A stretch of 64,000 nt of DNA from contig JAUFOQ010000003.1 of assembly GCA_040285855.1 (NCBI GenBank), positions 2,356,001 through 2,420,000 of the forward strand. The letters run 5' to 3'. The notes under the pieces are model-generated. The model saw only the letters and a list, made by a program, of their open reading frames with translations. It was not told where the DNA came from and did not search any database. Source of the stretch: Eukaryota sp. GEM-RC1 (Eukaryota). Of the stretch, positions 6,265 through 57,869 are shown one piece after another; within the stretch, counting starts at the first letter, position 1; the number at the start of each line of letters is the position of its first letter. Position numbers and translations under genes: made by a program.

Positions 6265-6411
6265 TTGAATTCCAATTTGACATGTTCAGTACAGTATTAT
6301 TGAAAGATGCAACATTATGTATACTAATATATTGCTACTACATGATGGAAACTGATAAAACAATGATAATGATGAAAACTATATCAGGCCCTCTCATAAG
6401 ATAATTTAAAA

Positions 6412-7432
6412 CAGGGATGCCGAAAAATATATTGTACAGTAGTGCAATACATTGTATATTGCAATACATATCGTAGGTGTCCCAATACAAGCAAGGTTCC
6501 AATACAATCAAGGCCCCAATACAAGCAAGTAAAAGTGTTTGCTTGTATTCTTCTCATACATTCATTCTGGCTGTCCAGCGAGTTGTACTTCTATACAAAG
6601 TTTATTAAGATGTATTACTCGATGGAGTTATTGTATTGTTTGACTTGTATAAATTCAGAAGGACAAAAGGGCGTATCAAAATCCAATTGGAAACAACAGG
6701 CAATAGCATCCCTGTCAATAGAACTTTGCTCATATACAGACAAATACATGTATTGTGTATTTGTAGAACAAATTCATATACTGTTATTAAAGCATGTGGA
6801 ATATTAATGTATTGTTTTATATTTTTGCTGCATTTATAATACAGTGTACAAGTAGCATTACGAAATAGGGCATGTGGTCCTGTAATATATTGAAAACAAA
6901 GATGTCGTCACTGCACCGTATGACTAGGTCCTCGAGAAAGGAGAAGAAGTAATGTTAGTGTAATGACTCATCAGGACTCAATTGTATAATAAATTCACTT
7001 TACTCTCTAACATGGTACCTAAGACCAACAGAATTGTTTCACAAATGAATAATGATTTGGAGTTTAAACAGATGCTCTGTTTTTGTATTGTAGTCTTTGT
7101 TTGTAGATTAAGCTCTCTTCATAAAAGGATTGACTTTGCTCTAAAATCTGTTTCATACAACAATAACTCTTTCTGCTTAACATATAATCAATAATCACAC
7201 TCAATTCACTTATTGGAACAAACAATGCTATCTGCCGCACGTCAATTTATTGACTCTGTAGAGTGTTGCAAATATTGCAATATATTGCAATATTTTTATT
7301 GCGACAATTGAAATTGGTGACAATATCAATATACTGTACTTGTAGTTATTGAAATATTCGCAAACCACAAAATATGTATTGTAATATTTAAAACGTACAA
7401 TATATATTGCAATATATTTTTCGGCATCCCTG
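6412..7432. mobile_element. hAT-type non-autonomous element (MITE)
   Basis: TIR CAGGGATGCCGAAAAATATATTG at both ends; perfect 8-bp TSD ATTTAAAA (6404-6411 / 7433-7440). Confidence 0.9.
6953..7030 (+). mobile_element. 78-bp LTR (3' LTR remnant with PPT) nested in the hAT MITE
   Basis: TGTTAGTG...CAACA, identical to 61357-61435 except one T; preceded by polypurine tract GAGAAAGGAGAAGAAG. Confidence 0.8.
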
Positions 7433-8067
7433 ATTTAAAATAATGTGAACATCCAAACGTGTCAAAAGAAAATGTGAAATAAATATAATTAAAACAAAAT
7501 AAAACCTAAATGAAAACAACATATTTTATTAGTACATGTACATCTACTAAAGAGGAGCCCTGAACTAAATATCTTTATGACTGTTATTAATGATGAAAAA
7601 TACAAATTTCCCTAGTAAATATTCATATTCACATTCATAAGCACCTACGGATGCTTCATCACACCAGCTTCCTCTTATAGGAACCAAAATAGTCTGTTGT
7701 TTGATCTACCTCGTATCACGTGCCCTTATAATTGGTACAGTATCACACCACTAAACGTGATGAATATAAGTTGACCATTGATCTTCAAGAAATCGTGAAG
7801 AAACACAGATGTATCAAGTGCAGAGTTTATTCGTAAAAGAGATTTGCAACTTGAATTAGGGGAAGTGTTTGAGAGAAAAATGATGTCATGTTCATAAATA
7901 TTTAATGAGACTAATACAAGTGCGAAATAATTAGTCTCAGTGAGACAATTTGCAATTACTCTCACTAAAAATTAGTCTCACTATGTGACCAGTGAAAATG
8001 ACGTACGGTATTAGTCTCAGTGAGACTAATTGCAATAATCGGTGTACTTTAATTTGATAGAATTGAA

Positions 8068-8909
8068 GAGTGTTACGAGAAACGTTTCTACGTTTCAGCG
8101 TTTCCACGTTTCCGAAACGTTTTCAATAAACATATCAGTATGGAAACGGCTTGGAAACGTAGAATACGTTTCGGAAACGTAAATTTTGGGTCTGGATTTA
8201 ACTTGTTTTTGTACCAAAGAAACTCATCAACTACTACAGATTGTGATACTGTGTGAGTGAGCACTGACGATAATACCCTTAAACTCAATTTCAAGCCACC
8301 AAGAAGGATATTGCCAATTTCGTCCTGTCGTTGAACTAAATCATCCGATACTTCTTCGTCTTCTTCAACTTCTATGACTAATGATAAATCCTAGAATTTT
8401 CTTTTCATTCGTCTACCGACTTTGACCATCTTTTTTAACGTGGTGTGAGCTGGATTGATTTATTCAATAACATTATTAATTTCTATAAAAATAACATGAC
8501 CACAATGTATCTTTAAAATTTGCAAAGTTGTAATACAACCGTATAACCTTGCACCATCAGGTGTAACAATGTTAAAGATCATTACATCCATCTAATACAA
8601 GGAAACATCCAGTTTGAAGAGGCCGTGCTCACAAGGTAATCAGTGGAGTCTTTTCGTCGGCCACTGGGAGAGAAAAGTGACGAATAGTCGTCGCTGTGTG
8701 CAATCTGAACGATTTCACCTTCATCAATGTCGTTGAGACATACTGCAAAACAGTGAGAGTGTTGATATTTTAGAAATTTTGGAAGAGAGAAATTGGATTT
8801 GGAAGAAATGAGAATTGTTCATATAAAAATGACGTTTTGGAAACGTGGAAACGTGGAAACGTTTCCGAAACGTTTCTAGACAAGTTTTGGTACGTTTCTC
8901 ATAACACTA
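8068..8909. mobile_element. hAT-type MITE
   Basis: TIR (T/G)AGTGTTAYGAGAAACG; 8-bp TSD GAATTGAA (8060-8067 / 8910-8917); subterminal GAAACG repeats. Confidence 0.85.
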
Positions 8910-8933
8910 GAATTGAAGAACTGTGCTTCTGCA

Positions 8934-11900
8934 ATGTCTGAATGTCAAAGTCCTAAAGATACACTCAGCGCCCTCATCCCTGCTTGCTCTCCTTACACAA
9001 AAGCCCCTCCCAGACCACGAATCACTGATAGGTCACCTTGTTTTTCCCCTACAAGACAATCCTCATCTCGCATATCTTCTTCTGTCACTGCTAAAGCACT
9101 CTTTGCGTCTCCTGAGGCTAAGAAAGTGTGCAAAAGACCTGATCCTGGCCCTCTCTCTCCTCAACGTCGGTTCTTCGACTCTATTTCTTTGCCTTCAATA
9201 CCACGACCAGAAACACCTGTCTCATCATCATCACAAGATTCAAAATCTGATGCCACATCACCAAGTGACACTGTCAAACTTGGTAAAAAACGTCGTTTGT
9301 TACTTTCTTGTCCTTCCTTTTCTTCCTTTGACACGTCGTCAACTTCCATTAGTAATGATCTATTACAGTTCACTACTGTTGAGTCTCTAGATTTTCATTG
9401 TATATTTCATGATAATTCTCTGTTTCAAATTCGTGAACTTGAAGGTACTGTCACCATCCAAGCTACTTCCTTCGAATCAGTCCTTCAAAGTGTTTGGAAC
9501 CATGACAGCTTTAAACCAGAACAAAAGGAAACTTTAGAAAGGATTCTCAATAGACAATCTTCAATGTTGTTTCTTCCAACTGGTCATGGTAAAACTCTTC
9601 CCTTACAATTCTTTGCTCTTTGTTCCAGACTTACAGGTCCTGTCATTGTAGTCTCACCATTACTAGCTCTCATCAATGACCAAGTAAAATCCCTTCCAAG
9701 TTGTCTCTTAGGATTAGGTGCTCATAATTACAAAGGAGTATCAGGAAGTGAGGCTTTTGTTAAGAGATTGGCTTTGTCTGATGTTATTTGGATATCACCT
9801 GAAAAGGCTGTTCTACCGTCTTTTAGGGAGGCTTTAATTAAAGCAACGGCATTGCGAAGATTACTTATTAAAGAATTGTGGAGTAATTTGTCAAAGTTTA
9901 TCGAGCAGAATTACCCACAAGAATTCCATCGTTTTTCTTCTTTTCCTGATGTTTCTACTTTGTCTCAACCTGCGTCTTTGTTAGTTATTGACGAAGTTCA
10001 TTGTTTTGGAACCTGGGGTAATAACTTTCGAAGTGATTTTTTAAAAATACCTGATTTTTGGAATTTTCTTGGGAATCCCACAGTCCTTGCACTTTCAGCT
10101 ACTTGTTCCTTTCAAACCAGATCAATTCTACAGTCAAAGTTCTCCATATCGTCCGATGCCATCTCCATGGCTGATAGAAAATCAAACCAAATTCTTTCAG
10201 TTTCTTGTGATAATCAGCAAGAATCAGCACTTCTTCGTCTCTTGACTTCCAAAAGACTTCAAGGGGAAAGTGATTGTCTTTGTGCCACGTCATGAGTTGG
10301 CTCTTGCCTTAAAGGAATCCATTTCTGGAAGTACTTCTCTCAGAGTTAAAGCATATCATTCTGGATTTAGTGGTACTGATAAAATTGCAGCTGAGAACAA
10401 GTTTAGAAATGGGCTTTTGGATGTGTTGGTGGCAACTTCTGCTTTTGGTATGGGTGTTGATATCCAGAATGTTGATCATGTTATACAATATTCAATTCCA
10501 AAATCAGTAGAAGATTTGTTACAGCAAATTGGTAGAGCTGGTCGTGGTGAAGGTCGAATCACATCACGTGCACACGTGTTTTTGAACCCAGATGACGTTA
10601 CCAGATCAGTTTCTTTGCTGTTTGATGATACATACTGTGAGGAGCAAATATTTGACCTCATCACGTGTTTGATTGAGGGAAATGAGAAATTTGATTGTAA
10701 ATGCATTTCTGATGTAGACTCTTTAAGTCTTTGTTCTGATTTGTCAATGGATGCCACCAATTCTGTTTTAACTTTAATGGAAAATTTAAATTTTCTTGAA
10801 TTTTTGGGTTTGGTCTGTGGTAAAATCAAGTTTCAGTTTAAAGATAATTATTACTCAGATTTGACTGAAATCGAGGCCAGTGTTGAAGATCCTTGGGGAC
10901 GTGCTTTAGTCAAACTACTGGACTCAAAAAAACGAAAGTCTCATAATAATTCCGATTTTTATTGTGATTTGAAGGACTTATACTTATCACTTAAGATTCC
11001 AATAGAATCTAAGAATGACGAAACAGAACCTAAGAATCCTGCTAAAAAGCACGAAAAAGCAGCTGAATTTGAGCCTTTCAAGGGATCTTTGGAAGATTTT
11101 CTTGAATTGATTGGGTATTTGGAGGAACGTAAAGTGATTTCAATCCATTCGAGGCCCAATTCTAAACTGTTTCGAGTAAATATGCCTACATTTGACGATT
11201 TGTCTGATGAACATAGCTTTAATGTTGAAGCTGAGAAAAGAAGATGGTCGAAAGCTATTGCATCGGAACTTCGAAGTTCCCGAGATTTGGACATTAAACG
11301 TTTTTGTCTACTTTATGAATATTTAAATTCCTTCAAATATCCTTCAATTGACCAGTTTGATGATTCTCTGTCCCGCAATTCCAATGAGCTACAATCTCTT
11401 TTTAATCGGTATTTTTCGTTGGAAGAACTACCAACATTAGACCAATGCCTATCAAAAATTGATTGCTTCTCCACTAGTGCAACTGAATTGACTCATCCAA
11501 TCAAAAACTTAATCAACTCCCATAAGAGTGATCTCAATATATCTGATTCAATCAATGCGACTGCTTCCCATTTACTTCCACCTGCCAAAGGAGCGATCTC
11601 TTTTGCAAAGATTCTACATGGTCGTCAAACTAGGCTGATTAATCCCCACTATTACAAGAACAACAGTTGCTCTCCTTGGGGAAAGTACTTTAGATACCGT
11701 TTCGATCAGATTGAAGCAACAGCTTTTAATCTTTTGACGGAGTTCGTCACATTGTCTGAACAAAAGAAACAAGAAGCTGCTAGACAAGTTAGAATTACAA
11801 GAAGTAAACATAATGAGAAAATTCAGAAGGAGAGCCAGAAACAATGTGGGAGATTTTCAAAAAGTAAAAGTAAAGAAAAATCAAAGATTCCTCAAGCAAA

Positions 11901-12021
11901 GGCCTTAAGTCAAGGTCAAAAGTCACGTGGTAAGAAGAATAACGAGGAACTAGATCCGAATGACCCTTTGCATTCCCCAGTTAACAATTTTTTTAAAAAA
12001 AGGAGATTATTGATTATTTAA
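8934..12021 (+). CDS. RECQL4: RecQ-family helicase, RECQL4-like (two ORFs joined by a frameshift near 10265)
   Basis: LPTGHGKT, SPLLALINDQ, DEVH, LSAT, ATSAFGMGVD and QQIGRAGR motifs; frameshift near GGGGAAA at ~10263. RecQ4 subfamily call is inferred. Confidence 0.85.
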
Positions 12022-12774
12022 ACTTTGAGCTATTTTTTTGAATCAACTTGTCCTAATGGAATCGTTATTTTCTACTTGATTACTGAGCTGATGACGTGTA
12101 GATGATTGAAGTCTATTGTTTGATGAAGAATGAACGAAACTTGCTATCATTTATGTTACTCAGATATGTACTTATCTTCTATGTGAAATTTAATTCAATT
12201 TAATATCACGTATTAGTATGTCTACTCCACAAATTACTGAATCGTTTTTAATACAACATGCTGCTTAGTTTTTTTCAAATTTTTCGAAGATGGTTTCAGA
12301 AATGATTGCCTGCTACAGTCAGTCTTTCACCATGTAATGTACCACTGATATAATTGCTTTTGCAAAAATTAATAACTAACAGACACTAACTACCAGTACA
12401 GTATCTAACTATGATCCTATATTTTTCCTTTTTCAGCCACTTCAATATCATTATTGATATGTGCTGAGTGATCGGGTGAGAAATCAGTTCCGCACTCGTG
12501 ACAGCCATCAAAAACATTTTTTATTATTCACATAGTATATTTCGAATAAAAGAGCCTTTTTATGCCCTATTTTTAGCTCATACAGTGTATGTATCAATTA
12601 GTCCAATTATTGGTCAAGTTAGTATAAAATACGAATGCAAACAAGAACTCAATATCAGTAACACAACATTGATTACCACTAACTTCCCCAAATTCACGTT
12701 TCTCACTGAAGTATTAAAAGTTAAAGGAGACTCTGAAAAATACCACTACATTGTACTAGTAGGATCTGCAAAAG

Positions 12775-13036
12775 TATAATGTGGCTGTGCATTTTTTCTT
12801 GTATTTTGCTATTTGCTCGATCTAATTCGTCTTGTGCGCATCAGTCACTATAAACAGCTGCAATGCAAAGAGTGGAAATTAATTTTGGAATAACATCTAG
12901 ATTGATCACCAATTGAAAAAACACAACAACTCTCATCACATCCAAACTAATTGCGGAAATAACACATTGAAATTGACCCCAGTATCACAACAGCAACACC
13001 ATTGGTTTTATTTTTCAAATCATATTATTTTAAATC
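12775..13036 (+). repeat. ~260-bp dispersed repeat, inverted copy at 18921-19176
   Basis: Long shared blocks such as CTCGATCTAATTCGTCTTGTGCGCATCAGT and CTATAAACAGCTGCAATGCAAAGAGTGGAAATTAATTTTGGAATAACAT. Confidence 0.9.
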
Positions 13037-13222
13037 TTACTCATGATTTTGAACCCCACAATTTGAGCAGCATTTATACTGTTATTCAGAGGATAGTTAA
13101 GTCAATACAGTACGGTTTACGTGTTGTACGGGATCCTCATTGCCTCAATTGATTCTTATGACAGTTGACAAATCGCCTTCACATTGTTGATTGATTTTTT
13201 TGAACACTTGAATAACAGTGCG

Positions 13223-14758
13223 ATGATACTCTGTCCAGTTTGTCATCGCCAGTTCAATTGCTCCAACAGACTACCTTTTTCTTGTTTGTAGCAAAGAACA
13301 CACCCTTTGTCAACCTTGTAGTTCTTCTAGTACGTGTTGTTTAATCTGCCATGAAACATCATCCAACTCTCAGATCAATATGCAGCTACTGGTGTTCTTA
13401 CATCACCATCAGTCTCTTGATTCTATTCGTCCCTCAGAACTTCTTTTCGATTCTTCAATTCTGGATCATCAAGACTCTGACTCTACTCTCTTTGATGCAA
13501 CCTGGCTGGGAAAGGAAGTTAGTGTCAGAGTGGTCTTCTATTCTGACATCGCTTCGAAACAATCTATACTTCAACACCTCTTTTCTCTCTCTCAACTTCG
13601 ACATCACTACCTGGCAAATATGTATGGAGTTTGTGTCTTTGGTTCTGGTCATGTCCTTGTTGTAACTGAAAGAGTCAAACCTCTACTTCCTTTGCCCTCC
13701 TCTCTCTCTTTAGAATCCTTGTCTTATGCTCTGGAAATCACTGAAGCCTTGGATTACTTACATTCCCGGAGTTTTATTCATGGTGATCTTACTCCACAAT
13801 CAATATACACTGTTACCGGTACAATTAAATTGTTTGGATATGGATTTCAACCAAAAATTACACAATTTAATTTTTCAAATTTTAGTGCACCTGAGGTCTT
13901 TCTAGATCGAGTTTTACTTTTCGAGTCTGATATCTTTAGTTTAGGTTTGGTATTTTTCGAGTTATTCTTTGGTCAATTATCGTCGTTCCATTTAAATAGT
14001 CGAGATTCCTATGAACAGCGGCTTACCAATACCTTTCTGCAGTTTCCACCAACAGTGCCAAAAAGTCTGAAAAATTTAATAGTTTCATGTTGTAATATCA
14101 GTCCGAGTAAACGACCAAGTTTAAAACATGTAAAATCAGTTTTGAATCAATTGTCTGCTGATTTTGTTCTTAATTCAACTGCTGATAGTATTGTTTTCGC
14201 TCAGTCGGTGTCTACTTCAAAGAGAATTCGTATATTAGAAAAGGCCGTTCAACAACAAGTAGATCGAAGAAATGAACTTGTTTATAAAAATGGAATGATG
14301 TCTAAGGAAGTTGACCAATGTCAAGAGAAAATTAGCCACTTGTTGGAGGAAAATCAAAAATTAAAATCTGATTTGGAACATTTTAATATGTCTTTTTCTG
14401 AGATTCAAGTGTTGAATTCTCAACTTTCTTTGCACAAACAAGCGTTCAAAAACAGTTTGACAAATTAAAAAAACATTTTGTAATTGAATTCTCCAATTTT
14501 CAACAATTAATTAGAGGCCAATGTCAATTAATTGAAACTGATGTCAATGAATTACTAGTTTGTGACTCACACATTTTCCATCAAATTTTAAAAAGTCTCT
14601 TACTTCATTTAGAAGAGCTCAAGTTTCGATCTGAAGAAAGACCAATCATTCCAGTTAATCCACCGGAAACTCCGAGACCAATCATTTCTACTACTGAATC
14701 TGGCGAAGATCGACGTAAGCGATTAAAACAATTTATTGATACGCTTGAAAACAAATAA
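13223..14758 (+). CDS. RING finger + pseudokinase + coiled-coil protein (frameshifts at ~13277 and ~14450)
   Basis: N-terminal CPVC..C..H.LC..C..C..C. Kinase fold has HGDL, APE and SDIFSLG, but LFG replaces DFG and no VAIK lysine is evident. Frames rejoin across T5 and A5 runs. Confidence 0.7.
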
Positions 14759-14852
14759 ATGTAATTTATAGTACAAAAGGAAAATTAAAATATTGGAGAA
14801 TAATAACAAAATTTACATAACATACATAAAGATAATGACTCTAAACTGACAA

Positions 14853-17800
14853 CTATCCCATAGAGAAATAGTTTGATGATTCAGATAGAACGCTAGAGAG
14901 GGCATTCTCGTGAGGACCTGTACCAATATGCTTCAACAAAATATCATCCACGGCAGCTTTCCTGGTAATGAAAGGGAATTTAAAGCCAGTATTGCTTAAT
15001 CTAGTAACTCTATTGGCATTTAAGGCAGTTTCACGTACTAGATCAGCGGCTACATCAAAGGGAAGCACACTACCTGAATAAAGAGGACCAAAATTAGGGA
15101 CAGAGTTATCCTTGGTATGAATCAGAATCCTAACCATTTTGTTGAAAAGTGGCGTTATAATGATATGAACGAAGTTGAACTGAGAAGTTATGGTATTAGG
15201 TTGGTAATCACTGCCAGACTCATTGAAAACTATATGAACAAAATCATTTCCAATGTGCTTTTTCTTATGAATTTGTTGAGGATCTTTTGGATTGGTAGGC
15301 ATGAGAGTCTGAACGTGATAGATTACTTCATTTTGAGCGTCTGCGTAGTAAACAGCTCTTGATCCAGTAATACCATATCTATCAAGACCACCAAGGAAAC
15401 CCGTGTGGCTTGTAATGTCAATAAAACAGCCTAGACAATTCAAAAAATCATCAAATAATTGGGATCCAGCATCATTCGACAAGATTTCATTCTGGGTATT
15501 TTGACCGGGTCCAACGTAAACAACTCCTAGTTTGGAGCACTCACGATCTGGAATAGAATCTAAATGTTTTAGAGATCGAGCAAACTTCGTATCACTGTTC
15601 AAAGTGAAGAAGAATGGTTCAGCTTGAAGAAGATCCATGAGCCACAGAAATTGCCTAGAAGTTGAAATATTTGAAAAGCTCTGATCCCAAACCTTTGGAA
15701 TAGCACAAGGAGAAAACTCGTGAGATATTGGTCCTTTCTTACGTGGTAGTTTGGCCATTTTAGACAATGACGCTGCCCATAGAGAAGCAAAAGAAGTTGT
15801 CTGGGGATAAGCCTGGGCTCTGGTAAAGAGTTCGTTAACTGAAGGTAAATCGTAACCTTTAGAGTCGTTGAAATAGCAAAGAATAGTACCAGCAATCAAA
15901 TCATGAGTGGAAATATTGAGTGTTGATTCTCCCACCAGTTTAAAACTCAAAGACTTGTCAGTAACTGGTGACTCATCACAGAGAAATTTAAAAAGCCAAC
16001 AAAGTCTACTACTAAAAGATCGTAACAAAAGTAGAGCACGATTCTCAGGGAGATCCATTGAGGAAACTAACACGTCATCATTGACTAGGAAGAAACGTAA
16101 CAAACTACGCAAGTCAACCGAATTCTCCTCCTTGCCGGTTTGATTGATCTGTTCTTGCCAAATCGAGAGATAGTTGAGCAAATCGACTTCAGAAATATCA
16201 CTACTCGACGATAATCTCAAGGACAAATCCTTAAATGACTTAAGAAGTTTACCTAACGGTGGATGTCCAACAAAAGAAAAGGAAATTCTAAGAACGGTAG
16301 ACAACAACGACAATGACGTATTCCTAATCAAAGATGCATACGTGTCTCTTGATTTATCTTGCGGCAGAGGACTATCTGTTTGTCCAAATCTAAAGGACTT
16401 TGGTTTTTTAACTGGAGGTTCTTCATCTTCTACTTGAGAGTAAGAACAACAAACCTTTAATAGTAATGGGATTAAGGGCTCAGTGTGGAGGACAAAATCC
16501 ATTGTGGAGTGGAGCTCAGGCCAGGCAATCATAATGTCGACTGTTCGTAGGATATGAGCCAAAAGAGGCAGGTTGCAATTGGTTTGACCCTGAAAAGGAG
16601 GGGGTGATTGGCATAACTTGGCGAGAGAAAACAGAACAAATCCAAACACTTGTTTGGAATTCTTGGATTTCATGCAAGAAATTAGAGATGGTCGGATTCC
16701 TTGGAAAAAATCTAAAATTCCAGAGAAAACTTCGATATCCCAAGCTTCTGGACGATTATTTAATAACGAAATCAACGAACAGATGATACTTAATGAAGGT
16801 TCAACAAGTTTCTGGTGACCACACGTGACAATATGAGCTGAAACTCGTAGTATTTGAGCGAGGACTTTGATAGTACCTAAAAGAACATCAAGATTCTTTT
16901 CAACTTTCAAACAAGAAAGTAAAATTGAATTGATGGCAATCAAAGCGTCATAAAAGGTCCTAATTCCTACCAACAAGGCAGCAGCATCTGATGGAAACTG
17001 AACAAGATTCTGGATCTTTTGAACAATCTCTAAAGTGAAATCATCCGAAACTGGTTCAGGTGCTGACTCAACAACAGGCTCCTTGACTTCCTTTGACTTC
17101 CAGAGGGGATTATTTACAGTTCTCTCAGAAGCAGTCGTGGTGACAGCTGTCACTGGTGCTTTAGAAGATCCTTCATGAAGGAAAAGATCGAGAGACAGTG
17201 ATTCAAAGGGACAATTAAACTCATTGGATAGAGGTTTTACATTTACAATACCAATAATAGTTGCTAATAAAGAAATACAATGATTTCTAGTCATTAAATT
17301 AGCTGGACTTCTGGGAGTGGGAAACGACAGCCCAAGATGACGTGAACATTGGAAAACAATTAAAGGAACAATTGGAATGATGATTTTGTGTAGGTATTCA
17401 GAAGATAGCAGGGTAGGAAGGAACGAGAGAAGAGTTCTGACTGGGAGATCTTCTGTTAACGAAGAGAGAACTTGAATCAGGGTGTGAATGAATATGTGTA
17501 AGTGAGTGGTAGGAATGAGTTTAACAGAAGGAGAAATAGGAGTATAGATCAAACAAAGAGATTTGATTGCTGCAGATTTGGCAGGTTGCGACACCGTGAT
17601 TGGTGATAAGAGCAATGAAAAACACCAACTGCCAAACAACTTAATCAAAGTATTGGGAGTGTAGAACTTAGTACGTTTTGAATACAATGAATTTTTGTTA
17701 AATTCAACAAATTTGGAAACGACTCCCGAGATAGTTTCAAAAACAACTTGACTAAGTTCCGCATCTTCAATAGTGCTAAGATCTCCAATAGAATACAGCA

Positions 17801-18770
17801 CTCTAAAGAACTGATATTTGATTGTGTCAGGATCACAATCAAACTGGATTTTCTTGACCCCCAGGCCACCAATCCAATTATAGCTCAAAGTAGAAGGTTC
17901 AGAGGTTAAAAAATCAGTTAAGTTATTGATTGCAAGAGACCATACTTGACCGGCAAGTCTTCTGGCTCCCACATCTACAGGTTTCCTCCATCCAATCACT
18001 TCTGATTGTTTTTGACCTGATGACAGTCGTTTTGATACCAACTCCTTCCCTGAAGTCCCAGGAGGATGTAGTGCACCTCCAGTGAAAGCAATCATCAATC
18101 GGGAAAACGTATCCCACAGCTCATAACTTCCTTCATCAATCTTCATCATAAAGAGAACATCAAACAGTGTAGGTAGTACTAAAGGACACATGGACCCAGC
18201 GTAAGTACTGGAGTTAGTGTAGGGTAAGCGCATGGAGAGATCACTAGCGCAGAGAAGAACACGTAAGATGACGTCAGCATTTTTAGAGGAAGGGAAGTGG
18301 ACGGTCATTTCCTTGTAGAAGTAGAGGACATCAGTTATGAGAAGTTTCTGGTCGTGCAAAGAAGCTTCCGCAGGTCCTTCTCCGCCTGTCCTTGGGTGGA
18401 AAGAGAGAAGAGTGAAGAGAATGATGTTCTTAAGAGTACCATTATCCCATTTTAACAAGGAAGGAGATGATGATGTGAGAATCCAAGAACGGAAGACAGA
18501 TAGAGCATCAATGGACAGCTGACGATCACTAGAGTCTGTGAATGGCAGACAAAAAGCACTTCCGAGAACAGATATTGTCCAGTTAGTTTGAGAAAGATCT
18601 TGCAACAGAGAATTGACGTCATCTGCTTGAGAAAGACATGATAGAACAGATGCGATAATGGATCTCTTTTGTTCTAAGGGAAAGGTGCGTAGGATATCCA
18701 GTTCAGGATCGACTTTGTCTAGAGAGGTGACTCTTTCCAGCCAATGAAATGGATTAGCTCCTAAATCCAT
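14853..18770 (-). CDS. RalGAP/tuberin-like protein with C-terminal Rap-GAP domain
   Basis: ~1300 aa; KLGVVYVGPGQ..EILSN, GFLGGLD, EVIYHVQTLMP, KKKHIGNDFVHIVF. First ATG at 18770 (ORF track starts at TTG 18812). Confidence 0.85.
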   Translation of the reverse strand: MDLGANPFHWLERVTSLDKVDPELDILRTFPLEQKRSIIASVLSCLSQADDVNSLLQDLSQTNWTISVLGSAFCLPFTDSSDRQLSIDALSVFRSWILTSSSPSLLKWDNGTLKNIILFTLLSFHPRTGGEGPAEASLHDQKLLITDVLYFYKEMTVHFPSSKNADVILRVLLCASDLSMRLPYTNSSTYAGSMCPLVLPTLFDVLFMMKIDEGSYELWDTFSRLMIAFTGGALHPPGTSGKELVSKRLSSGQKQSEVIGWRKPVDVGARRLAGQVWSLAINNLTDFLTSEPSTLSYNWIGGLGVKKIQFDCDPDTIKYQFFRVLYSIGDLSTIEDAELSQVVFETISGVVSKFVEFNKNSLYSKRTKFYTPNTLIKLFGSWCFSLLLSPITVSQPAKSAAIKSLCLIYTPISPSVKLIPTTHLHIFIHTLIQVLSSLTEDLPVRTLLSFLPTLLSSEYLHKIIIPIVPLIVFQCSRHLGLSFPTPRSPANLMTRNHCISLLATIIGIVNVKPLSNEFNCPFESLSLDLFLHEGSSKAPVTAVTTTASERTVNNPLWKSKEVKEPVVESAPEPVSDDFTLEIVQKIQNLVQFPSDAAALLVGIRTFYDALIAINSILLSCLKVEKNLDVLLGTIKVLAQILRVSAHIVTCGHQKLVEPSLSIICSLISLLNNRPEAWDIEVFSGILDFFQGIRPSLISCMKSKNSKQVFGFVLFSLAKLCQSPPPFQGQTNCNLPLLAHILRTVDIMIAWPELHSTMDFVLHTEPLIPLLLKVCCSYSQVEDEEPPVKKPKSFRFGQTDSPLPQDKSRDTYASLIRNTSLSLLSTVLRISFSFVGHPPLGKLLKSFKDLSLRLSSSSDISEVDLLNYLSIWQEQINQTGKEENSVDLRSLLRFFLVNDDVLVSSMDLPENRALLLLRSFSSRLCWLFKFLCDESPVTDKSLSFKLVGESTLNISTHDLIAGTILCYFNDSKGYDLPSVNELFTRAQAYPQTTSFASLWAASLSKMAKLPRKKGPISHEFSPCAIPKVWDQSFSNISTSRQFLWLMDLLQAEPFFFTLNSDTKFARSLKHLDSIPDRECSKLGVVYVGPGQNTQNEILSNDAGSQLFDDFLNCLGCFIDITSHTGFLGGLDRYGITGSRAVYYADAQNEVIYHVQTLMPTNPKDPQQIHKKKHIGNDFVHIVFNESGSDYQPNTITSQFNFVHIIITPLFNKMVRILIHTKDNSVPNFGPLYSGSVLPFDVAADLVRETALNANRVTRLSNTGFKFPFITRKAAVDDILLKHIGTGPHENALSSVLSESSNYFSMG

Positions 18771-18920
18771 TGAGATTGAGTCAGTTGAGATGTTGAAAAG
18801 AATTTTATCCAATAGTGAAACGAGCTACAACTTTTGCAAATTCATCAAGGAACTTCAAGGCCAATTTGCCTAATCTACCATATATGGAAATCGCAAATGG
18901 GACAAGTGAATATTCAACAT

Positions 18921-19176
18921 GAATTAAAATAATATGATGTGGATAATAAAACCAATGGTGTTGCTGTTGTGATACTGGGGTCAATTTTAATGTTATTTCC
19001 GCAATTAGTATGGATGTGATGAGAGTTGTTGTGTTTTTCCAATATAGTGATCAATGTTATTCCAAAATTAATTTCCACTCTTTGCATTGCAGCTGTTTAT
19101 AGTTACTGATGCGCACAAGACGAATTAGATCGAGTACATAGCAAAAATACAAGAATATATGCAAAGCCATATTGTA
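18921..19176 (-). repeat. Second copy of the 12775-13036 repeat, abutting the candidate omegaRNA
   Basis: Reverse complement aligns to 12775-13036; similarity stops abruptly at 19176. Confidence 0.9.
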
Positions 19177-19366
19177 GAAATTTTCGGTAGTCCTCAAACT
19201 GTGAAGTTCATTCCAAATGGATAATCCTCCCAAAGTAAATCCTGCTCCCACTTTGGTCATATCCATTTAGGCATCACAGACACGCTATGCTATGAGATGA
19301 TACGGTGAGATTGAGATAGCTTCATACACATAGCGCTGCCCGACCGTTTATGGTGGACTGATTTCT
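19177..19366 (-). ncRNA. Candidate Fanzor omegaRNA scaffold
   Basis: Directly 3' of the Fanzor stop. Nested stems CGCTATG/CATAGCG, CTGTGA/TCACAG, AAATGGATA/TATCCATTT, CCAAAGT/ACTTTGG, with closing AGTCC/GGACT. G-U extensions favour the minus strand. Confidence 0.65.
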
Positions 19367-22300
19367 TCAAGGGAGATCTTCTTCTTTTGACTGCCTTCGT
19401 TGGGGTTCCTCCTTTTCTTTTCTCGATCCAGTTTTAGGTGAACCCTGGTTTGACTCATCTAGCTGTGGACATGTTCGTATGTCGTGACCTGTTTGTCCAC
19501 ATTCTCCACACTCTCTTTCTTTACGAGTCTTTTTCACTGCAGTCTTTTTTCGATCTCTCTTCAAAGTAACATTACCACTCTCGAAATCAGTTGTTAAAGT
19601 TTTTGATCTCTCGAGAATAGATGGCCTAGCTTGACCTTTGATGGCGGCTTCGATAATGGAATAGATATTGATCGAAGAGTTGAGATCTCTATTCCAATAA
19701 GTCTTGCACCTTTTGCATTTCACCAGCCCCCATGGAGCTGACTTTGCTTTTACTTCTACGGACTTCTTTATCTTCTCCCACTCGTCTTCAAAGCTTCTCT
19801 TTTCGGTGGATCCTTACGGTTGTAGACCAGTACTTTTTCCTTGAGTTTCTTCTTCTTCCGTCTTATTTGACGCAGTCCTCTTGGGCCTAAAACTTTGATA
19901 GATGGATCATTTGTACATAATCCAAATAGTCCTTGAGCAGCACACTTTGAACAGGACTTGCTGGTACGGTATTCGTCAACTAGAAATACCTTATACCCGA
20001 ATTTTCTTAAAATTCTTCGGATTTCTGCTCCTCTAATAGCTGGAGTTTTACCTTTTCTTGTGTTTCCCTTAGAGCTCCAGTCCCCGTAACCAAGGACAAG
20101 GTCTTCTGGAGATCCATAGGTTAATTTAAACCTTTCCAACATATTCTTTTCACTCTGTTGATTGTTGGAATAAATTTGAAACTTCCTTTTCGTAAACCAA
20201 TCGTCTTCATAGAAATCACTCAGGTATACACAACTCCGTTCAGCTTCTTTGATGTAAGTCTCGAACTCATCACTGAAACAGGACCTTTGTTGTCCTCTAG
20301 AGACGGCAAGAGCAAATTCGTCGAGGATTTCTTGACCAGAAACAGTTCTACCATTAGAATTTTCGACTGTATAATCTTGGAGCGATCTTTCAGTTTCTGT
20401 TTTCGTAATTTCAAAGAAGGAAGTTTTTAGTTTTCTTCTTTCAGTCAACCGATATTTCTTGCTTTTTCGGTCATAAGATCTCTCCCCAGCACTGTACCTG
20501 AAGCTGGCCAAAAAGTGGTTTGGTTTCAGCCGTACTCGTTGAGATGGGGTTTGTCTCCATTGGTTCAATTGTTTTTTTCTTTTTTTAATACCACCTTTTT
20601 GTTTCAGTCTCATTTCTGAAGGTAGCCGTTTTTTCGTGGGATTGTTGTCCGAACAAGAAAATTCTTCAAATAATATCTCTTCATTTGTTTTTGGAGATAC
20701 GCAAAACATCAAGTCATATTCATTCGGGTCAATGCCAATTATTCTCTTTTCTGTCAGGTTCATTTTTTCAATGTCTTCCGAAGTTAAAGAGTCAATATAT
20801 CTTTCCGAAGCTGTTAGTGGTTTTGCGGTAAAGTCTTCAAAGGTGTTACCGTTTTCGTCCAGTAAATCTTTTCGAATCATAACCAAGGAACAGGAAATGC
20901 CATCTGTTACAATCGAAGAATACTTCAGACCAAATGATCGTGATGATGTAATAGCAGTTTCGGTAAGTACAGAGTCAAATACTTCCTTTCGAATAGCGTT
21001 AGCGGAACCTTTCAAATTTAAAACTCTTTGGTTTATCCAATCAGTATCTAATCTAATATGCTGTGGGACCAACGTCTTGGTCATTGGGAACGGATTATTA
21101 ACCTTTAAGGGTTTTCCATCAATTGAACAAAAAGACTGAATGGTTCTGTTGATATAAACAGCATGAGAAAGAAATTTTAGTGGCTTGGCTTTCTGAGCGT
21201 AGTAAAGATTCTTGCCTTTGGCAATGGTAGGGAACAAACAGAATTTCAAATAGGCAAAAAAGATTAAAGTCAATTCTGATTGCGGGAAGGGGGAAAATGA
21301 TATGATCATCAATTGGAATGTCTTCAAAGTTTCCATTAATAATCAGTTCTCTGATGGAATTTAATTTTGATTTCAATTCCTTCTTTAAGTGTTGCTCTTT
21401 AATTTGTTTAAGACGATAGTTCTTCAACGTAACAATGTTAAAGTAGCGAAAGACATAGTTGTGGAAGTATTTCGCCAAATTGTTAGCGTAATTGGTTTCA
21501 ATTTGTTTAGCCGTATAATGATAAATGCCTGACATAAACTCCAAATTCGGAAAAGAAATGTTGTTAGTTCCAATTTCATGAGACAGAGAGTCAAGAATTG
21601 GATAAAAATTATTACAGTAGTGTAATGCGATTTTTTGTTTCAAAGAATGATCAAATTTTTCATTTTGTAAAACTGCTTCTGCTTCTTTTTTTGACATTTT
21701 CAAATCGGACATACCGCAAGCCTTTTTTTTCTCTACATACATTCGTCGGAGAACGTGCCTTATTGATCCAAGAGCCAAAAAGGACTCAAATCTGGTAAGC
21801 GAACCGAAAAGTCTTTGTAATTATAGCAGATATTCCAATTCTCAGAAGACTCAGAATCATTTCCAATCATGGACAACGAAGGGTCATCGTGCAGTAACAT
21901 CAATTCTCTTTCTTTGACTATTGATTCAGCTTCGATTCTTCCAAAATCTTCAAATTCACGTAGAAGCAAATGCTTCAAGAAGGTGGTTCCTCTCACAGTT
22001 GCTTTTTGATTTCGTTTAGAACAAATTTTAATTAATTGAATGTTTTCATAATCTCTGAAAACCTTATCCAATCCTTTTTTTACGACTTTAATCGGAGGGC
22101 GGTCTAAAACAAGCTGCATTTCTTCATCAAAAAAATAATTCTTCAATTCGGACAACATCTTAATTTTGTTCAGCAAATCTTCAACCAGAGAGTTGCGTTT
22201 TCTATCATCCATCCATAACTTGAAAGTCTTAATATTTTGAGCAAGCAAAGTAAACTCCCTCTCCCGTTCAGGGCTAACCGTTGACATGTTTAGGATTTTT

Positions 22301-23142
22301 TTGAATTGGTTGAAGTAAGTTTTGAATTCAGTTGGTGATAGAATTAAATTTGGTATTGCCTTTTGAAACAATTTGGAACAAACATTTTCTAAACCTCTAC
22401 CACCTTTGAAAACATAAGTTGACTTTACAACATTTCCCATGTCAAGGGAAATAAATGGTCCAAATTCGCTTCGCTTACACCATCTATAGAACCAGATGGG
22501 AATAAAAGGCCTGAATGGCTCATCCACATTAAATGTGGTGGAGATGTTCCAAAGTTTACATCGTGCAATTAAAAACGGGAACAATAATTTTTCAGAGTTA
22601 TAACTTATAAGCAATCTAGGCTTTTTCTCGGACAGTAAAGATATAAGACCATTAATCATGACTTCTTCTGATGGAAAAGTAATTGTTTGAACACCATCAA
22701 AATCACTTGTTTCTTTGGTACTGATGACAACAGTAGAAACGAAATTGGTGTAAATAAATGTGAGGACAATAAGAATGATTTGATCATCCTCCGCATTTGG
22801 TACCAGCTCTGGCCTGGACACTTCAATTTCTTCACTGATTGTTGGAACTTCAGCAGCCTCTTGTTCTTCAGAAACAATTTCTGTTGAAGATTCTGTAGTA
22901 GTGCATTTCGGAAGAGATTTCTTCTTAACATTGAAAAGGAGTGGTGTAAGTCGTTCACTATCGGTAATGACCGTTTTAAAATCAATAAGGCAATACAGTG
23001 GGATGTCATCTACAGAAGACAGGTGAGACTTCTTAAGAGGCGGGGGAAATATAGTGTCACTATGGTTCTGAGAGGATAAACCACAAGGATAAAGTGTATA
23101 CTCCGGGCCGTGAACTACTTCGGAAAGACTGACAGGAGGCAT
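19367..23142 (-). CDS. Fanzor1-type RuvC nuclease fused to an N-terminal PolB-like 3'-5' exonuclease domain and a C-terminal CCHC knuckle (~1260 aa, 3 frameshifts)
   Basis: TDGISCSL, IIGIDPN (RuvC-I, ~20730), GYGDWS, LVDEYRTSKSCSKC (~19970), CKRC..WNRDLNSSINI (RuvC-III, ~19690), CGECGQTGHDIRTC. ORFs 21760-23187, 21119-21778, 19768-21336 and 19367-19723 join by 1-nt shifts. Confidence 0.85.
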
Positions 23143-24063
23143 GGGAAGGAAATAACAATTGGCGACATTGTGATTCGTTCTCGTCACTTTCCTCTCGACA
23201 GGATTCAGTTTCCAACTTGATTGTTAGTTTGTCAACAGTTTACTTTCCACTTTACAACTCGGTTAATTTATGGCAAAACTTTGTCTCCTTCTCTAGATGC
23301 TGTGTACAACTATCCCACCTCCTCTCAAAAATTTTAGTCATTATACCTCACTCTCTCAGAATATCTGCATGTTAGTTTCATTCACGATTCTATCTTTTAA
23401 GATGCGCCTTTTCCGGTCTCTATTCAGGCCACAATGATCAGAAGTCTTTTGCCAGAAAGTCAAGACTCGTCTTCCTTTTAGAAACACTCAGTCCCCATCA
23501 TCAGGTCTTCCTTTGTTCCTACTTTTACTTCATTTTGACTTCTCACAAACACCTTGAAAACAAGTGTGACTACATCCAGTCCTCTCTTTAAGCATTCTAT
23601 ATGACTGATTATTGCTACTGTGCGATAGACCAATGATATACAGTCTTAAAAACCCAATGGTTATATTACTAAACAATTGGAAATTGCAGAAGCAACTGCC
23701 TTTGCGAGACAAATATATCGGTAGGTAATGATCCCTATTTGCAGCACACATTGGTTGGTTCTAATTAAGAATATACAATATTTATCTCAGATATTTAAAA
23801 TCATATATGGGAAACACAACTTCAACTTACTTTAATGGAAGAAAGAAGCTACCTCGATTGAATACGAAGGAAGTGAAGTTCTGCACTAGATTGTACTTCA
23901 GATAACCTTAGGAAGGATAATGGCATGTATAAAAAGACACAACAGACCAAAAAAAGTCGAGATGGGGGGAATTGTTGGGGTGAGGAGACAAGGAGGGAAG
24001 GGGAATTAAATTCACACAACTGAAGAGAAACCTCACAGAAGCTTTTTTCGTTTTTGTATCTAG

Positions 24064-24762
24064 ATGTCCTTATATGAACTTTCAGGCCGCTTTCAAAAAC
24101 AAGACATACCAGAAAAGGCAAAACATCAGTTTGTCATGTGGTTGACCTCAAAAATTGAAACCCTGGCCAGCTCTTCTGTTGATGTCCCAGCAACAGTGAA
24201 TCGTCTTCTTACCCTTTCCAATCCCAAACAAATAGAAAGCTTCCTTCTTTCGAGGCTCGGCCGAAGACCTGAAGTCTTTTACTTTGCCCAAGAGTTTCTC
24301 ACTCAGCAATCACAATTATACAGCTCTAAATCCTTTGTTTTTGAACCAAACGTTCAAAATCAGCGTAAACAATCAAAACAAAAGACTCACACTCTGACGA
24401 CTAGGGAAAGTTTAAAAGGGAGAGAATGTGGGTGTAATTGTACGATAGAAGACCATCTTCTTATAGGTAATTGTACCAATTGTGGCCGAATTGCTTGCTC
24501 TGCTGAGGGAAATACTTGTTTTACTTGTGGGAAGTACATTGCAGGAGATATACAAAGTTCTTTATCAACACCTGCTTCAACAAAACTAGATCTGAAAGAG
24601 ACCCAGGCAGAGATCTCTGCTCAACAATATCTGACGAAATTACTAGAGTTTCAAAAGACTTCCGAAGAAAGGACGGCTGTGATTGATGACCAAGGTGATG
24701 GTGCTGTTAGGAATCCTGAAGTTGACAAAGAAGTGTTTTTGGAATTCTCGGAATTATTTTAA
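24064..24762 (+). CDS. C2HC5 zinc-finger protein, TRIP4/ASC-1/Rqt4-like
   Basis: CGCNC..H.L..NCTNCGRIAC..EG..CFTCG followed by KLLEF..RTAVIDDQ. Confidence 0.8.
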   Translation: MSLYELSGRFQKQDIPEKAKHQFVMWLTSKIETLASSSVDVPATVNRLLTLSNPKQIESFLLSRLGRRPEVFYFAQEFLTQQSQLYSSKSFVFEPNVQNQRKQSKQKTHTLTTRESLKGRECGCNCTIEDHLLIGNCTNCGRIACSAEGNTCFTCGKYIAGDIQSSLSTPASTKLDLKETQAEISAQQYLTKLLEFQKTSEERTAVIDDQGDGAVRNPEVDKEVFLEFSELF

Positions 24763-24794
24763 ATTAATGCCAACACTCAATTTATTCAAAATAT

Positions 24795-26614
24795 TTACAC
24801 TAAATGATCAAAAAGACCCACATGTGATTTGTTCTTTGATATTCTCACCGTACCATCATCAGATCCTGTAATCAAGATCACTTCATCCTCAATCAACGCA
24901 AACTGAGCTGTATTCACAAGAGATGAGTGATTGCCTACTCGGGTCATGAGAGAAAATTTAAATTTTTGAGTAGGCAGTATTGACCAAGACCAAATTGGAA
25001 CATTGTTATCTTCACTTCCCATTGTAACTAAACCCGGTATTATAGATCCATCAATGTCAAATTTACCAGACTTATGACCTGTCAGCGAAGCAGAATCTAA
25101 AATTAGACCAGAATTTTCAATATTTGGGAGCTTTGTATTTGAATAAGTCGTAGAGTTAAAAATCTTCCTCATGGAATCAATCAGAAATAATTTACAGCTT
25201 GACCTCGTTAAATCTGGGACAGCAACAACAGTTTCATTTTCACAACAAAAATCAACAAAAGGACTCGGAGATCGAATATGAGCCAAAAATTTAAAATTTA
25301 GAACTGTCGATTGTGCAAAAGATCAGAAATAAAAATGACACAAAGTGATGATTGATTTGGCTCCACATCTACCATAGCAAAAAGACAATCATATTTGGAA
25401 TTTTCTGGATTTTTGAAATATTTCAATGCCCGCACTGATAGAAAGGGAAATGATTTAACTTGCCTAACTTCAGCACCATTAATTGAGTAAATATATACAG
25501 GTGAATTACCAAAGCTACTCAAATGAGTCACCATAAGGAAAAGTTGATCATTAAATTCAAAAAATTGAACAGAAGAAATGTCGTTTCTTACTTCTAAATG
25601 TAGATCATCAACATCAATTTTAAAAATTTCCTGAAAATTTGACAAATCAACAATGGTGAATGACTCTTCTCCAGCCAAAGCAATATAATCAAAATTCGGT
25701 GAAAAAGTGACATTATCTACATCGTCTGGTAGGTCAAAATCATGACGATTACTAAAGGTAAATCTGTCGTTAGAAACTGCAAAGTTTTGAAACAATGTAG
25801 CACCAAATCGACCTGAACAACAAAGAAAATCTCCACCAACACGAACTCTCCAAAGCTCATCTGAAAGATTGATTGACCCTATTGTTGTATCAAACTGATT
25901 ACAATCCACAACGGGCAGGTCACCAATCAACGACAAGGACGAAACATTGAGAGGTACAGATGATTGAGTAGCATCAAAGGAAAGAGCTTTGGATAATAGG
26001 GTTTCCAACTGTCGTTCGGGTAGTAGAAAATGACTGGGAATCACGTGATTCAGTTCAGAAAGACACGTGATTCGATCCCCACAGATTCCAATGTCTAAAC
26101 TTCTCTTGGGAATGTCAGACAGTTCACACATGAGCAAAGTAGAGAGCGAGTGTAGATGGTCTTTGGAGGTTATTGGAGCTAATTCAGTTCGAAGTATTGA
26201 CAGAGCAACAGAAGGTTTTTCTAAGGAAATAGCGTCTATAAGTTTACGACGAAGAAGTAGAACTTTGGCGATTTTATGTTGAATATCATTGTCAAAAGGA
26301 ATCAATGGAAGCATGTCCACTGCTTTATCCCACTTTCCATCAAGAACGTGTTGACGGAAGATAGTTGCAGAAGCGGCATGAGCCTGAATTCCAGATTCAT
26401 CAGAAAGAAGCTTAGCTGGTTCTGGAAAACCCCATGATTCTAAAGCTTGTATGACAAGACGTATCTGTTGTGTGTGCAGTTTTTGGACCCTTGTTCGACT
26501 TTGTCGCAAAGTTTTGGTATCTCCATGAAGAACTGTTTCAGAATGAGAGTTATCGTCTAGCATAAGTTTTTGTCGCTTTCCAGAGGGCAGTGAGAAGGGA
26601 GCAAGACGAAACAA
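24795..26614 (-). CDS. LisH-CTLH-WD40 protein, WDR26/GID7-like (frameshift near 25300)
   Basis: IRLVIQALESWGF (LisH), FRQHVLDGKWD (CTLH), LRTELAP, LPERQLETLL, GSED..IW, GSDDGTVRI. Start codon uncertain. Confidence 0.75.
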
Positions 26615-27480: not shown

Positions 27481-27504
27481 TTTGAAGAGAAAATATAGAA
27501 TTTT

Positions 27505-34800: not shown

Positions 34801-35867
34801 ACAATATTGTTACTTTAATTGAAATGTTGTTTATTTGTGGTGAAGCTGATGAAGCTTGTGAACTTGCTTTAACTCATGGTCATGGTCATTTGGCTGCTGA
34901 TTATTATAAGACTCATGGTCATTATCACCGTGCTCTCAAGCTCTATCTTCAATCAAATGCCATTGATGACGCGATCGATGTCGTGGCATCCAGTAATAAT
35001 GACCTTTTGATTAGAACCATCTTTGACTTTTTAATGGGAGACTCTGATGGAAAACCAAAGGATGTCCACCATTTGTTCACTCTTTATGTTAAACTTGGTC
35101 ACTTTAACGAAGCTGCCAAGACTGCTGTGATCATTGCTGGACAAGAAATTGAATCTGGTCATTATTTAGAGGCTAGGAACACATTATTTAAAACTTTAAG
35201 AAAAGTTAAAGGTTTATCTGCTGGCTTTAGACTACCCAACAAACTGCTGTCTATGTTAAAGGTCTTACACTCCTACATTGTTGTTAGAATGTTAGTTAAA
35301 AGAGGGTTACACGAGGAGGCTGTGATTCTACTCGTATCTGTGGTTGAAAGTGATGTGTTCATCCAACATCGTATTTCTATGTTAATTTCTTGTGTAATTG
35401 AATGTCAGAAAGCTGGTCTGAGGGAAAGTGGCTTTAATTATGCGAGTCGATTGATGCAATCAGATTATGTTGATCACGTACCCAGTCAGTATAGGTCAAA
35501 AATAGAAAAGATCATTCGAAAACGTGATAAATCCCAAAAATCGGGAATTCTAGATCGAACTTCCCCTTGTCCTTTCTGTGGTTCAGAAATATCTATTACT
35601 TCATCTTCTTGTTCAAATTGTCGATCTCTGATCCCATTTTGTATAGTTACTGGTCAGAAAGTTGTTAGAAATGATTTAACTTGCTGTCCACACTGTGAGT
35701 TTCCAGCAATTTATTCTCAGCTTGTCGAACATGTTTCTCACTTTCAGTCTTGTCCAATGTGTTTAGAAGAACTAAGTACTGAGACTTTGGAAATTATAGA
35801 TAACGCAGAGGAGTATTTAAATGATTTAACTGATTGGTTTACAGGTTCTACACAGAAGAGTTCTTGA
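31859..35867 (+). CDS. WDR19: Intraflagellar transport protein IFT144/WDR19 (four ORFs, frameshifts near 32470, 33600 and 34300)
   Basis: N-terminal WD40 repeats (GTHQKRI), TPR-like solenoid, FLMGDSDGKPKD, LHSY, IECQKAGLR and C-terminal CPFC..C..C..IPFCIVTG..CP.C.FPA..CPMC. Confidence 0.9.
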
Positions 35868-36056
35868 TGGGATGCTGATTTATAAAATTGTAACTTTATA
35901 CATGTACTTTACTTTCTAATCTGTTTTTATACAATGACGGTTGTTTTGATACGAAATGAACAGACAGATCAGCTTCAGAATGTCTTCTAATCATTCTTGA
36001 TAAGTGTTACTAGTAGATGTAGATGTCCGAAATAGTTCATCCTCTCTACAGTCTCA

Positions 36057-57862: not shown

Positions 57863-57869
57863 GTCATAA

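Follow-up and report, generated by a model that had tools for sequence, protein, structure and literature searches.

The analysed stretch, hereafter the window, comprises 64,000 nucleotides of contig JAUFOQ010000003.1 of Eukaryota sp. GEM-RC1 and carries on its minus strand a Fanzor1 gene (19367–23142) with a predicted N-terminal exonuclease domain of the family B DNA polymerase (PolB) type. Directly behind the candidate right end of this Fanzor element, a non-coding block of about 260 bp starts with TA (18921–19176, minus strand), and a second copy, also starting with TA, lies in inverted orientation at 12775–13036 (plus strand). The sequence-only reading of this DNA took the copy at 12775 for an element-free site within a repeat family, where the target of the guide and the target-adjacent motif (TAM) could be read off. 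Since the 12775 copy shares only right-flank DNA, it is likely a copy of that flank and not an empty insertion site. We tentatively favour, at somewhat below even confidence, its origin in a local rearrangement that inverted the DNA and had one breakpoint at the element end, the explanation that requires the fewest extra events.

Self-comparison of the window by blastn placed 12775–13036 (+) against 19176–18921 (−) in an alignment of 264 columns (90.2% identity, E 8e-97); in a global alignment, 10 columns had gaps and the 254 ungapped ones showed 16 substitutions. The minus strand reads TACAATATGGCTTTGCATAT from 19176, right after ..GGACTACCGAAAATTTC, and the copy at 12775 starts as TATAATGTGGCTGTGCATTT, which confirmed both the inverted block and its four mismatches in the first 20 nt (positions 3, 7, 13, and 19). 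The outer edge of the repeat is abrupt, with ungapped identity outside of it of 1/10, 2/20, and 7/40; at the inner flanks these values are 4/10, 7/20, and 16/40. The designation "repeat family" found no support because only two copies are present in the 64-kb window, where neither blastn nor a laxer search revealed a third one. An exact 27-nt pattern taken from the repeat gave no stretches in metagenome contigs. No coding trace was found in the repeat and its flanks by blastx against the related protein set. An Rfam scan of 12000–24100 returned no match for the block and only two weak small nucleolar RNA matches, both below the gathering score and outside the region of interest.

Substitutions are concentrated at the ends of the repeat. 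They affect 4 of the first 20 nt versus 12 of 234 positions elsewhere (Fisher p 0.028); others lie at columns 21, 40, 42 and 241, 243, 246. Of the first 15 substitutions, 11 fall within the 42 outermost or 25 innermost columns (permutation p 0.027). The core has 5 differences in about 190 positions. Its divergence is comparable to that among copies of the element (93–98% amino acid identity over at least 100 residues), so the core looks about as young as the element family; the ends look older.

An empty site must join the left flank to the right one. The left end and left flank of the element are expected in the interval 23143–24063 (minus strand), between the start codon at 23142 and a gene at 24064 that forms a cluster of one. 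This interval contained neither a terminal inverted repeat (TIR) nor a match to the DNA preceding 12775: comparison with 12022–12774 gave a local score of 24 versus a shuffle mean of 23.3, and the best anchored matches equalled the shuffle median at all seven lengths from 10 to 40 nt. The power to detect a displaced homologue of at least 20 nt was at least 0.987 even at 17% divergence, pieces shorter than about 15 nt being below detection. In the rest of the window, 12451–12774 had no partner by blastn, and no Fanzor remnant was found upstream of 12775 (best E 0.68). Thus, the empty-site inference failed its direct test, and the sequence CTGCAAAAG before 12775, proposed to occupy the TAM position, has no demonstrated link to a TAM; exceptions would be a subsequent loss of the left flank or an outward extension of the repeat by less than about 15 nt.

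No TIR and no convincing target site duplication (TSD) were found for the element. As for the TIRs of Mariner-like Fanzor1 elements with a TA target duplication, there was no inverted match of at least 9 nt between 19120–19420 and 23143–24100, and the best local score for inverted similarity (24) was reached in 6 of 100 shuffles. An 8-nt inverted match, TACAATAT/ATATTGTA at 23781, was rejected as a TIR, being at chance level. TA is present at the right junction, and direct matches of 8–9 nt occur at chance level. One of them, the 9-mer GAACTTCAC at 19201–19209 and 23873–23881 (minus strand), has TTCC/GGAA just inside and is a candidate TSD for an element spanning 23872–19211; a 9-mer match of this kind arises in 17% of shuffles. 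The left interval is partly repeat-like, since 23625–23695 matches 4465–4534 (E 2e-5).

The segment behind the stop codon (19177–19366, minus strand) is a candidate omega-RNA scaffold with two well-supported stems and an uncertain closing helix. It ends with ..GAAAATTTC followed by TA, which gives a candidate right end at 19177/19175. Stems 19339–19278 and 19272–19213 recur in all three fold windows, the second with a pairing probability of 0.83–0.99 at its base in each, and the last 36 nt (19212–19177) switch partners with the fold window. The fold z-score was −1.53 for the 194 nt after the stop codon and 0.00 for 19420–19150. A 6-bp helix, 19366–19361/19181–19176, ends at the junction and has a probability of about 0.95 in one window and 0.5 in a wider one; the third window begins behind the helix and so does not allow it to form. 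Among 115 trial ends, this is the sole perfect 6-bp terminal helix, and shuffles give one near the junction in 15% of cases. Folding is also seen for the start of the repeat itself (19180–19121, z −2.7), and beyond the first 60 nt the block folds poorly, with mostly positive z-scores. No Rfam match was found at the candidate scaffold. A covariance model of the RNA of viral relatives, built from 29 of 43 distinct viral right ends and with a consensus of only 7 pairs, found nothing better than E 0.15 in 11000–25000 and, among the matches listed, none at the candidate RNA.

The fold had also been claimed to mark the right boundary of the element independently and exactly at the repeat edge. Neither the exactness nor the independence was confirmed, as the reliable stems end at 19213 and, upon full folding, the closing stem reaches a probability of at least 0.5 at 21 of 42 trial 3' ends. 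What survives is the plausibility of a right end near 19175–19177, because the edge is sharp and lies 190 nt behind the stop codon, and because in viral relatives the closing stem ends together with conservation (80 loci, about 35% identical). We consider a right end at 19175–19177 probable. The studied Fanzor1 RNAs comprise three stems, and their scaffold includes the TSD (PMC10711439); the guide of SpuFz1 begins directly after the last stem (PMC10432273), and known Fanzor1 RNAs have a total length of 75–150 nt (PMC11423790), whereas the candidate scaffold in the window has about 190 nt.

With such a right end, 19162–19176 (minus strand) becomes a candidate 15-nt guide, a length within the 14–15 nt of native SpuFz1 guides (PMC10432273). 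If the TA belongs to the scaffold, like the TSD in the studied Fanzor1 RNAs (PMC10711439), the guide would start at 19174 instead of 19176. Over the 15 nt, the 12775 copy (12775–12789) has three mismatches, two of them within the first seven positions, and would therefore be a poor target. Judging by the seed behaviour of Cas12-family enzymes, such a site would probably escape cutting; the word "mismatch" is absent from the main text of PMC10432273. Three sites in the window, including the guide itself, match the guide with up to three mismatches, versus 2.5 expected by chance. One of them, 38270–38284 (minus strand), agrees at 14 of 15 positions, better than the 12775 copy, and shows no homology past 16 nt. 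Escape from the guide, suggested earlier as a cause of the mismatches, was rejected: the excess is also seen at the inner end of the repeat and beyond the guide, both ends exceed the core, and the pattern thus gives no pointer to escape. Such an end-heavy distribution would be expected if the core had undergone conversion or if the junctions were error-prone, and it does not suit a guide-specific process.

The two repeat copies enclose host genes. A protein kinase with an N-terminal Cys-rich segment, presumably RING-like, is encoded at 13223–14468 (plus strand; PF07714, E 1.2e-21) and forms a cluster of one; a RalGAP/Rap-GAP-like gene occupies 14853–18770 (minus strand; PF02145, E 2.9e-51, and PF20412). 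The Pfam scan detected no transposase between the copies. The segment 12775–19176 was rejected as a single TIR transposon (MULE- or Tc1-like), since it contains the kinase and RalGAP-like genes and has no TSD; its outer 9-mers differ (CTGCAAAAG versus GAAATTTTC), and TA at each end is the sole common feature.

Remnants of dispersed elements border both copies. The inner end of copy 2 abuts a decayed coding remnant at 18829–18925 (minus strand), which matches 2598–2693 by tblastx (E 4e-6) and gives 69% identity over 91 nt by blastn (E 4e-8). Upstream of copy 1, an internally deleted remnant of the same kind at 12343–12450 (minus strand) matches 49867–49937 (E 2e-10) and 49579–49607 by blastn. 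This dispersed element is likely a non-LTR retrotransposon (LTR, long terminal repeat). Other decayed copies are located at 300–1000, 2250–2700, and 47600–50080; Pfam assigned them to no family, and their translation, in our judgement, resembles the endonuclease end of such a retrotransposon. A protein from another locus, P0160, ends in this dispersed element.

In the explanation that we favour, the right end of the element would lie at or just before the outer edge of the repeat, and the RNA from 19366 onward would, like that of other Fanzor1s, fold as a scaffold and take its guide from the initial ~15 nt of the repeat. A rearrangement with its breakpoint at the element end, through staggered breaks or template switching, would have inverted the 5.9-kb two-gene segment. 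Such an inversion would copy the block in inverted orientation and leave the same outer edge and unrelated outer flanks at both copies. Several observations support this scenario: the sharp outer edge of both copies, the lack of a left-flank match for the DNA before 12775, the presence of just two copies in the window, inverted around host genes that look single-copy, the core divergence comparable to that among element copies, the position of the edge 190 nt behind the stop codon, close to the size range of known Fanzor1 RNAs, and the 6-bp helix ending at 19176. Inverted duplications of non-repetitive DNA accompanied the breakpoints of 17 out of 29 Drosophila inversions (PMC1885836). Several points weigh against it. 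Divergence is much higher at the repeat ends than in the core, so the duplication could predate the element; no TIR, TSD, or transposase ties the breakpoint to the element; the fold does not single out 19176; the adjacent remnants of dispersed elements mean that the block may be a transposon piece; and the inversion is without gene-order support from an outgroup.

Alternatively, the edge could be the repeat's own, being the end of another element or a reshuffled intergenic patch lying behind the Fanzor element or clipping it, with the true right end upstream, for example at about 19211. The last strong stem ends at 19213, and the SpuFz1 guide directly follows the last stem (PMC10432273); GAACTTCAC, present in direct orientation at 19209 and 23881, would then be a 9-bp TSD; both copies begin with TA, and copy 2 abuts a remnant of another element at its inner end. 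We nevertheless regard this as unlikely: a 9-mer of this kind arises in 17% of shuffles, the block has no third copy in the window, no coding trace, and no Rfam match, and the foreign end must have landed within 40 nt of the scaffold by chance.

Insertion of the element inside a longer repeat, with 12775 as the element-free copy and ..CTGCAAAAG(TA) holding the TAM, appears rather unlikely. It would account for the sharp edge at a plausible right end, and the divergence of the repeat ends would place the duplication before the arrival of the element. The displaced outer part of the repeat must then have been deleted later or have been shorter than about 15 nt, and the left interval has indeed been reworked, as shown by its repeat-like portion. 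The heptamer AAAAGTA, the last 7 nt through the TA at 12775, occurs there once, near 23525 on the minus strand, but a hand estimate from base composition gives about 0.2 expected occurrences of a 7-mer in the interval, and the matches were at chance for all seven lengths. This explanation also needs an extra event, and just two copies are present in the window.

It is improbable that the block travels with the element (as its terminal part, by 3' transduction, or through repeated ectopic homing into copies of one and the same flank) and that 12775 is a solo fragment: the TIR-less MCi-2 has a long conserved 3' region and fuzzy 5' ends (PMC3627910), and the window element likewise lacks a TIR, but the element would then end about 450 nt behind the stop codon with a block that folds poorly past its first 60 nt, and the solo copy would need a break exactly at the scaffold edge.

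The assignment of the gene itself to Fanzor1 is based on its motifs and modelled fold. The coding region consists of four reading-frame pieces with breaks near 21780, 21290, and 19800, and includes the PolB exonuclease-like domain, WED/REC, the TDG motif (20907–20899), the RuvC residues D (20730), E (19974), and D (19687), and a C-terminal zinc knuckle. The RuvC motifs GIDPN, DEYRTS..C..C, and C..C..WNRD represent a TnpB-type triad with a rearranged glutamate and the zinc-finger region, and the Pfam match to PF07282 is weak (E 3e-4, below the cut-off). The TDG motif, named for Fanzor1 (PMC10711439), reads VTDGIS. Sibling protein P0128 (1182 aa in one frame) spans the first three pieces at 95%, 86%, and 93% identity; the last frame break is bridged by P0003 and P0147. 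An AlphaFold2 model of P0128 (50-row alignment, mean predicted local distance difference test [pLDDT] score of 62.8) gave seven Foldseek matches at E ≤0.001, all to SpuFz, PpFz, or GtFz. Since the RuvC triad and TDG motif are present and the fold matches only these proteins, the modelled protein is a Fanzor1 and likely functions, by prediction, as an RNA-guided DNA cutter.

All three frame breaks are at homopolymer runs. Host genes in the window are similarly split into adjacent frames (the RecQ-like helicase at 8880–12021, the kinase, WDR19 at 31859–35867, and Hsp70 at 44591–46223), a pattern more suggestive of sequencing indels than of decay, although short introns are also conceivable. For the assembly holding the sibling proteins, Canu was run on MinION reads and the result was corrected (PMC11316075). 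Taken together, these observations suggest that the frame breaks in the Fanzor gene are likely sequence errors.

The Fanzor gene is carried by a multi-copy mobile element. Of the 13 proteins in its cluster, 2 are encoded by the window; the other 11 are gene models that lie on six further contigs under non-adjacent locus tags. Identity is 93–98% over at least 100 residues. Scanning of metagenome proteins revealed 26 loci, all 28–37% identical, and no close relative.

The first gene piece (21760–23142) matched the PolB exonuclease domain PF03104 above the Pfam cut-off (E 1.7e-9), as did 10 related element proteins. Its last 110 residues were confidently modelled as the start of the Fanzor body (residues 351–400, pLDDT 82–93), and in P0128 the fusion lies in a single reading frame. 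The exonuclease domain had a pLDDT mostly below 60 in the full P0128 model, and a single-sequence model of the piece reached 34; given these low-confidence models, the exonuclease fold rests on the profile matches. A phmmer search against 1.84 billion representatives gave 14 matches: the best 10 were exonuclease pieces or fusions, and the others were three weak ordinary PolB enzymes and one unrelated fn3 protein. The seven of these best 10 that were looked up originate from two skoliomonad assemblies. No longer proteins homologous to this piece emerged from a dedicated search, a blank that is uninformative since such proteins exist.

Whole exonuclease-Fanzor1 proteins are represented by P0161 (1473 aa) and P0178 (1479 aa), with intact FDVET, YNCDKFD, and YC(V/L)ND motifs. 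Active DEDDy proofreading exonucleases carry D-x-E in Exo I, D in Exo II, and Y-x-x-x-D in Exo III; these acidic residues are intact in P0161, P0178, and P0180. The window subfamily has DFKT and YNSEKLLFPF and no Exo III residues, so its catalytic motifs are mostly lost, and on these residues it would not be classed as an active DEDDy exonuclease. Comparison of P0161 with solved structures gave matches to SpuFz and to yeast Pol delta (E 4e-4), and the ESM Atlas provided no usable match for P0161. A D-x-E-x-NPGP motif, which we take to be 2A-like, is located near the N-terminus of 6 out of 18 scanned proteins (P0159, P0163, P0175, P0176, P0161, and P0178), and in P0159 the exonuclease is preceded by a domain resembling Ulp1 proteases (PF02902, E 2e-4). 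Neither a 2A-like motif nor an Ulp1 domain was found upstream of the window Fanzor copy, and Pfam detected no exonuclease domain in the viral relative P0012. As judged from profiles and motifs, a natural fusion of Fanzor1 with a polymerase-type exonuclease exists in several subfamilies from two skoliomonad assemblies, with catalytic motifs intact in one of the two, which comes from a skoliomonad other than that of the window.

In the literature searches made, we found neither a fusion of this kind nor a Fanzor reported from Skoliomonas or metamonads. The papers listed for Fanzor and exonuclease domain fusions concerned engineering work, and among the matches listed, no title or abstract beginning paired Fanzor with Ulp1, DEDD, DnaQ, or 2A. 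The word "exonuclease" is absent from the accessible main texts of PMC3627910, PMC11423790, PMC10530073, and PMC10711439, whose supplements could list such proteins.

SpuFz1 of Spizellomyces punctatus, PpFz1 of Parasitella, and GtFz1 of Guillardia, the sole fold matches of P0128 at E <1e-13, share with the window protein the DP-type D, the rearranged E, and the last D of RuvC, as well as the TDG motif and a structured RNA-sized segment behind the stop codon. Unlike these proteins of 600–730 aa, members of the window family have about 1,250–1,300 aa, with the N-terminal PolB exonuclease domain and the C-terminal zinc knuckle, and no 30-nt TIR was found. The PF03104 domain is the proofreading domain of family B DNA polymerases; in contrast to the latter, the fusion has no polymerase domain, is joined to Fanzor1, and has mostly lost the acidic residues in the window subfamily. 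MCi-2, MCi-5, and CRe-1/2/3 resemble the window element in being multi-copy, having no recognisable TIR and no identified transposase of their own, and including truncated copies, but they have TSDs of 6–19 bp (PMC3627910), none convincing being found in the window.

The nearest non-skoliomonad relatives are giant-virus Fanzor1 proteins (the P0012 group, L001–L080), about 35% identical over the RuvC part. P0012 itself has 656 aa and no exonuclease domain. The viral elements have TIRs; in all seven loci where both ends were found, the left one shows TTTA and the right one TAAA. They also have an RNA of about 85 nt with three stems, the closing one including the flanking TAAA; this RNA has no sequence match in the window. 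The 80 viral loci form a ready set for TAM prediction.

Other mobile DNA is also present in the window. A MULE transposase encoded at 27499–28875 (plus strand; PF10551, E 4e-23; cluster of two) could possibly act in trans. A direct repeat of 869 nt (35891–36759 and 57867–58728, 94.5% identical) carries a DUF6064 open reading frame. Remnants of LTR retrotransposons at 40907–41431 and 50578–53387 encode gag with a zinc knuckle, RNase H, and integrase. Segments at 6402–7442, 8078–8877, and 41481–42602 include two of about 1 kb resembling miniature inverted-repeat transposable elements (inverted repeats of 30–70 nt) and two arrays of a 30-nt AT-rich unit.

A broader scenario, quite improbable as a whole, can also be sketched. 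In a skoliomonad lineage of TIR-less Fanzor1 elements encoding a single-protein exonuclease fusion, preceded in some subfamilies by a 2A-like motif and Ulp1 protease domains, the exonuclease would trim the cut, and the element would be copied into guide-matching sites, with right-flank homology kept and the left side joined without homology. The 12775/19176 pair would be a scar of this process.

The shortcut of obtaining a natural guide, its target, and the TAM from one window thus fails. The remaining value lies in the natural Fanzor1-exonuclease fusion, which is the main new feature here. At least 11 near-identical copies in one public assembly make the element ends, guide start, and TAM directly testable. 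A built-in end-trimming domain would bear on the spread of transposase-less Fanzor elements and on editor design.

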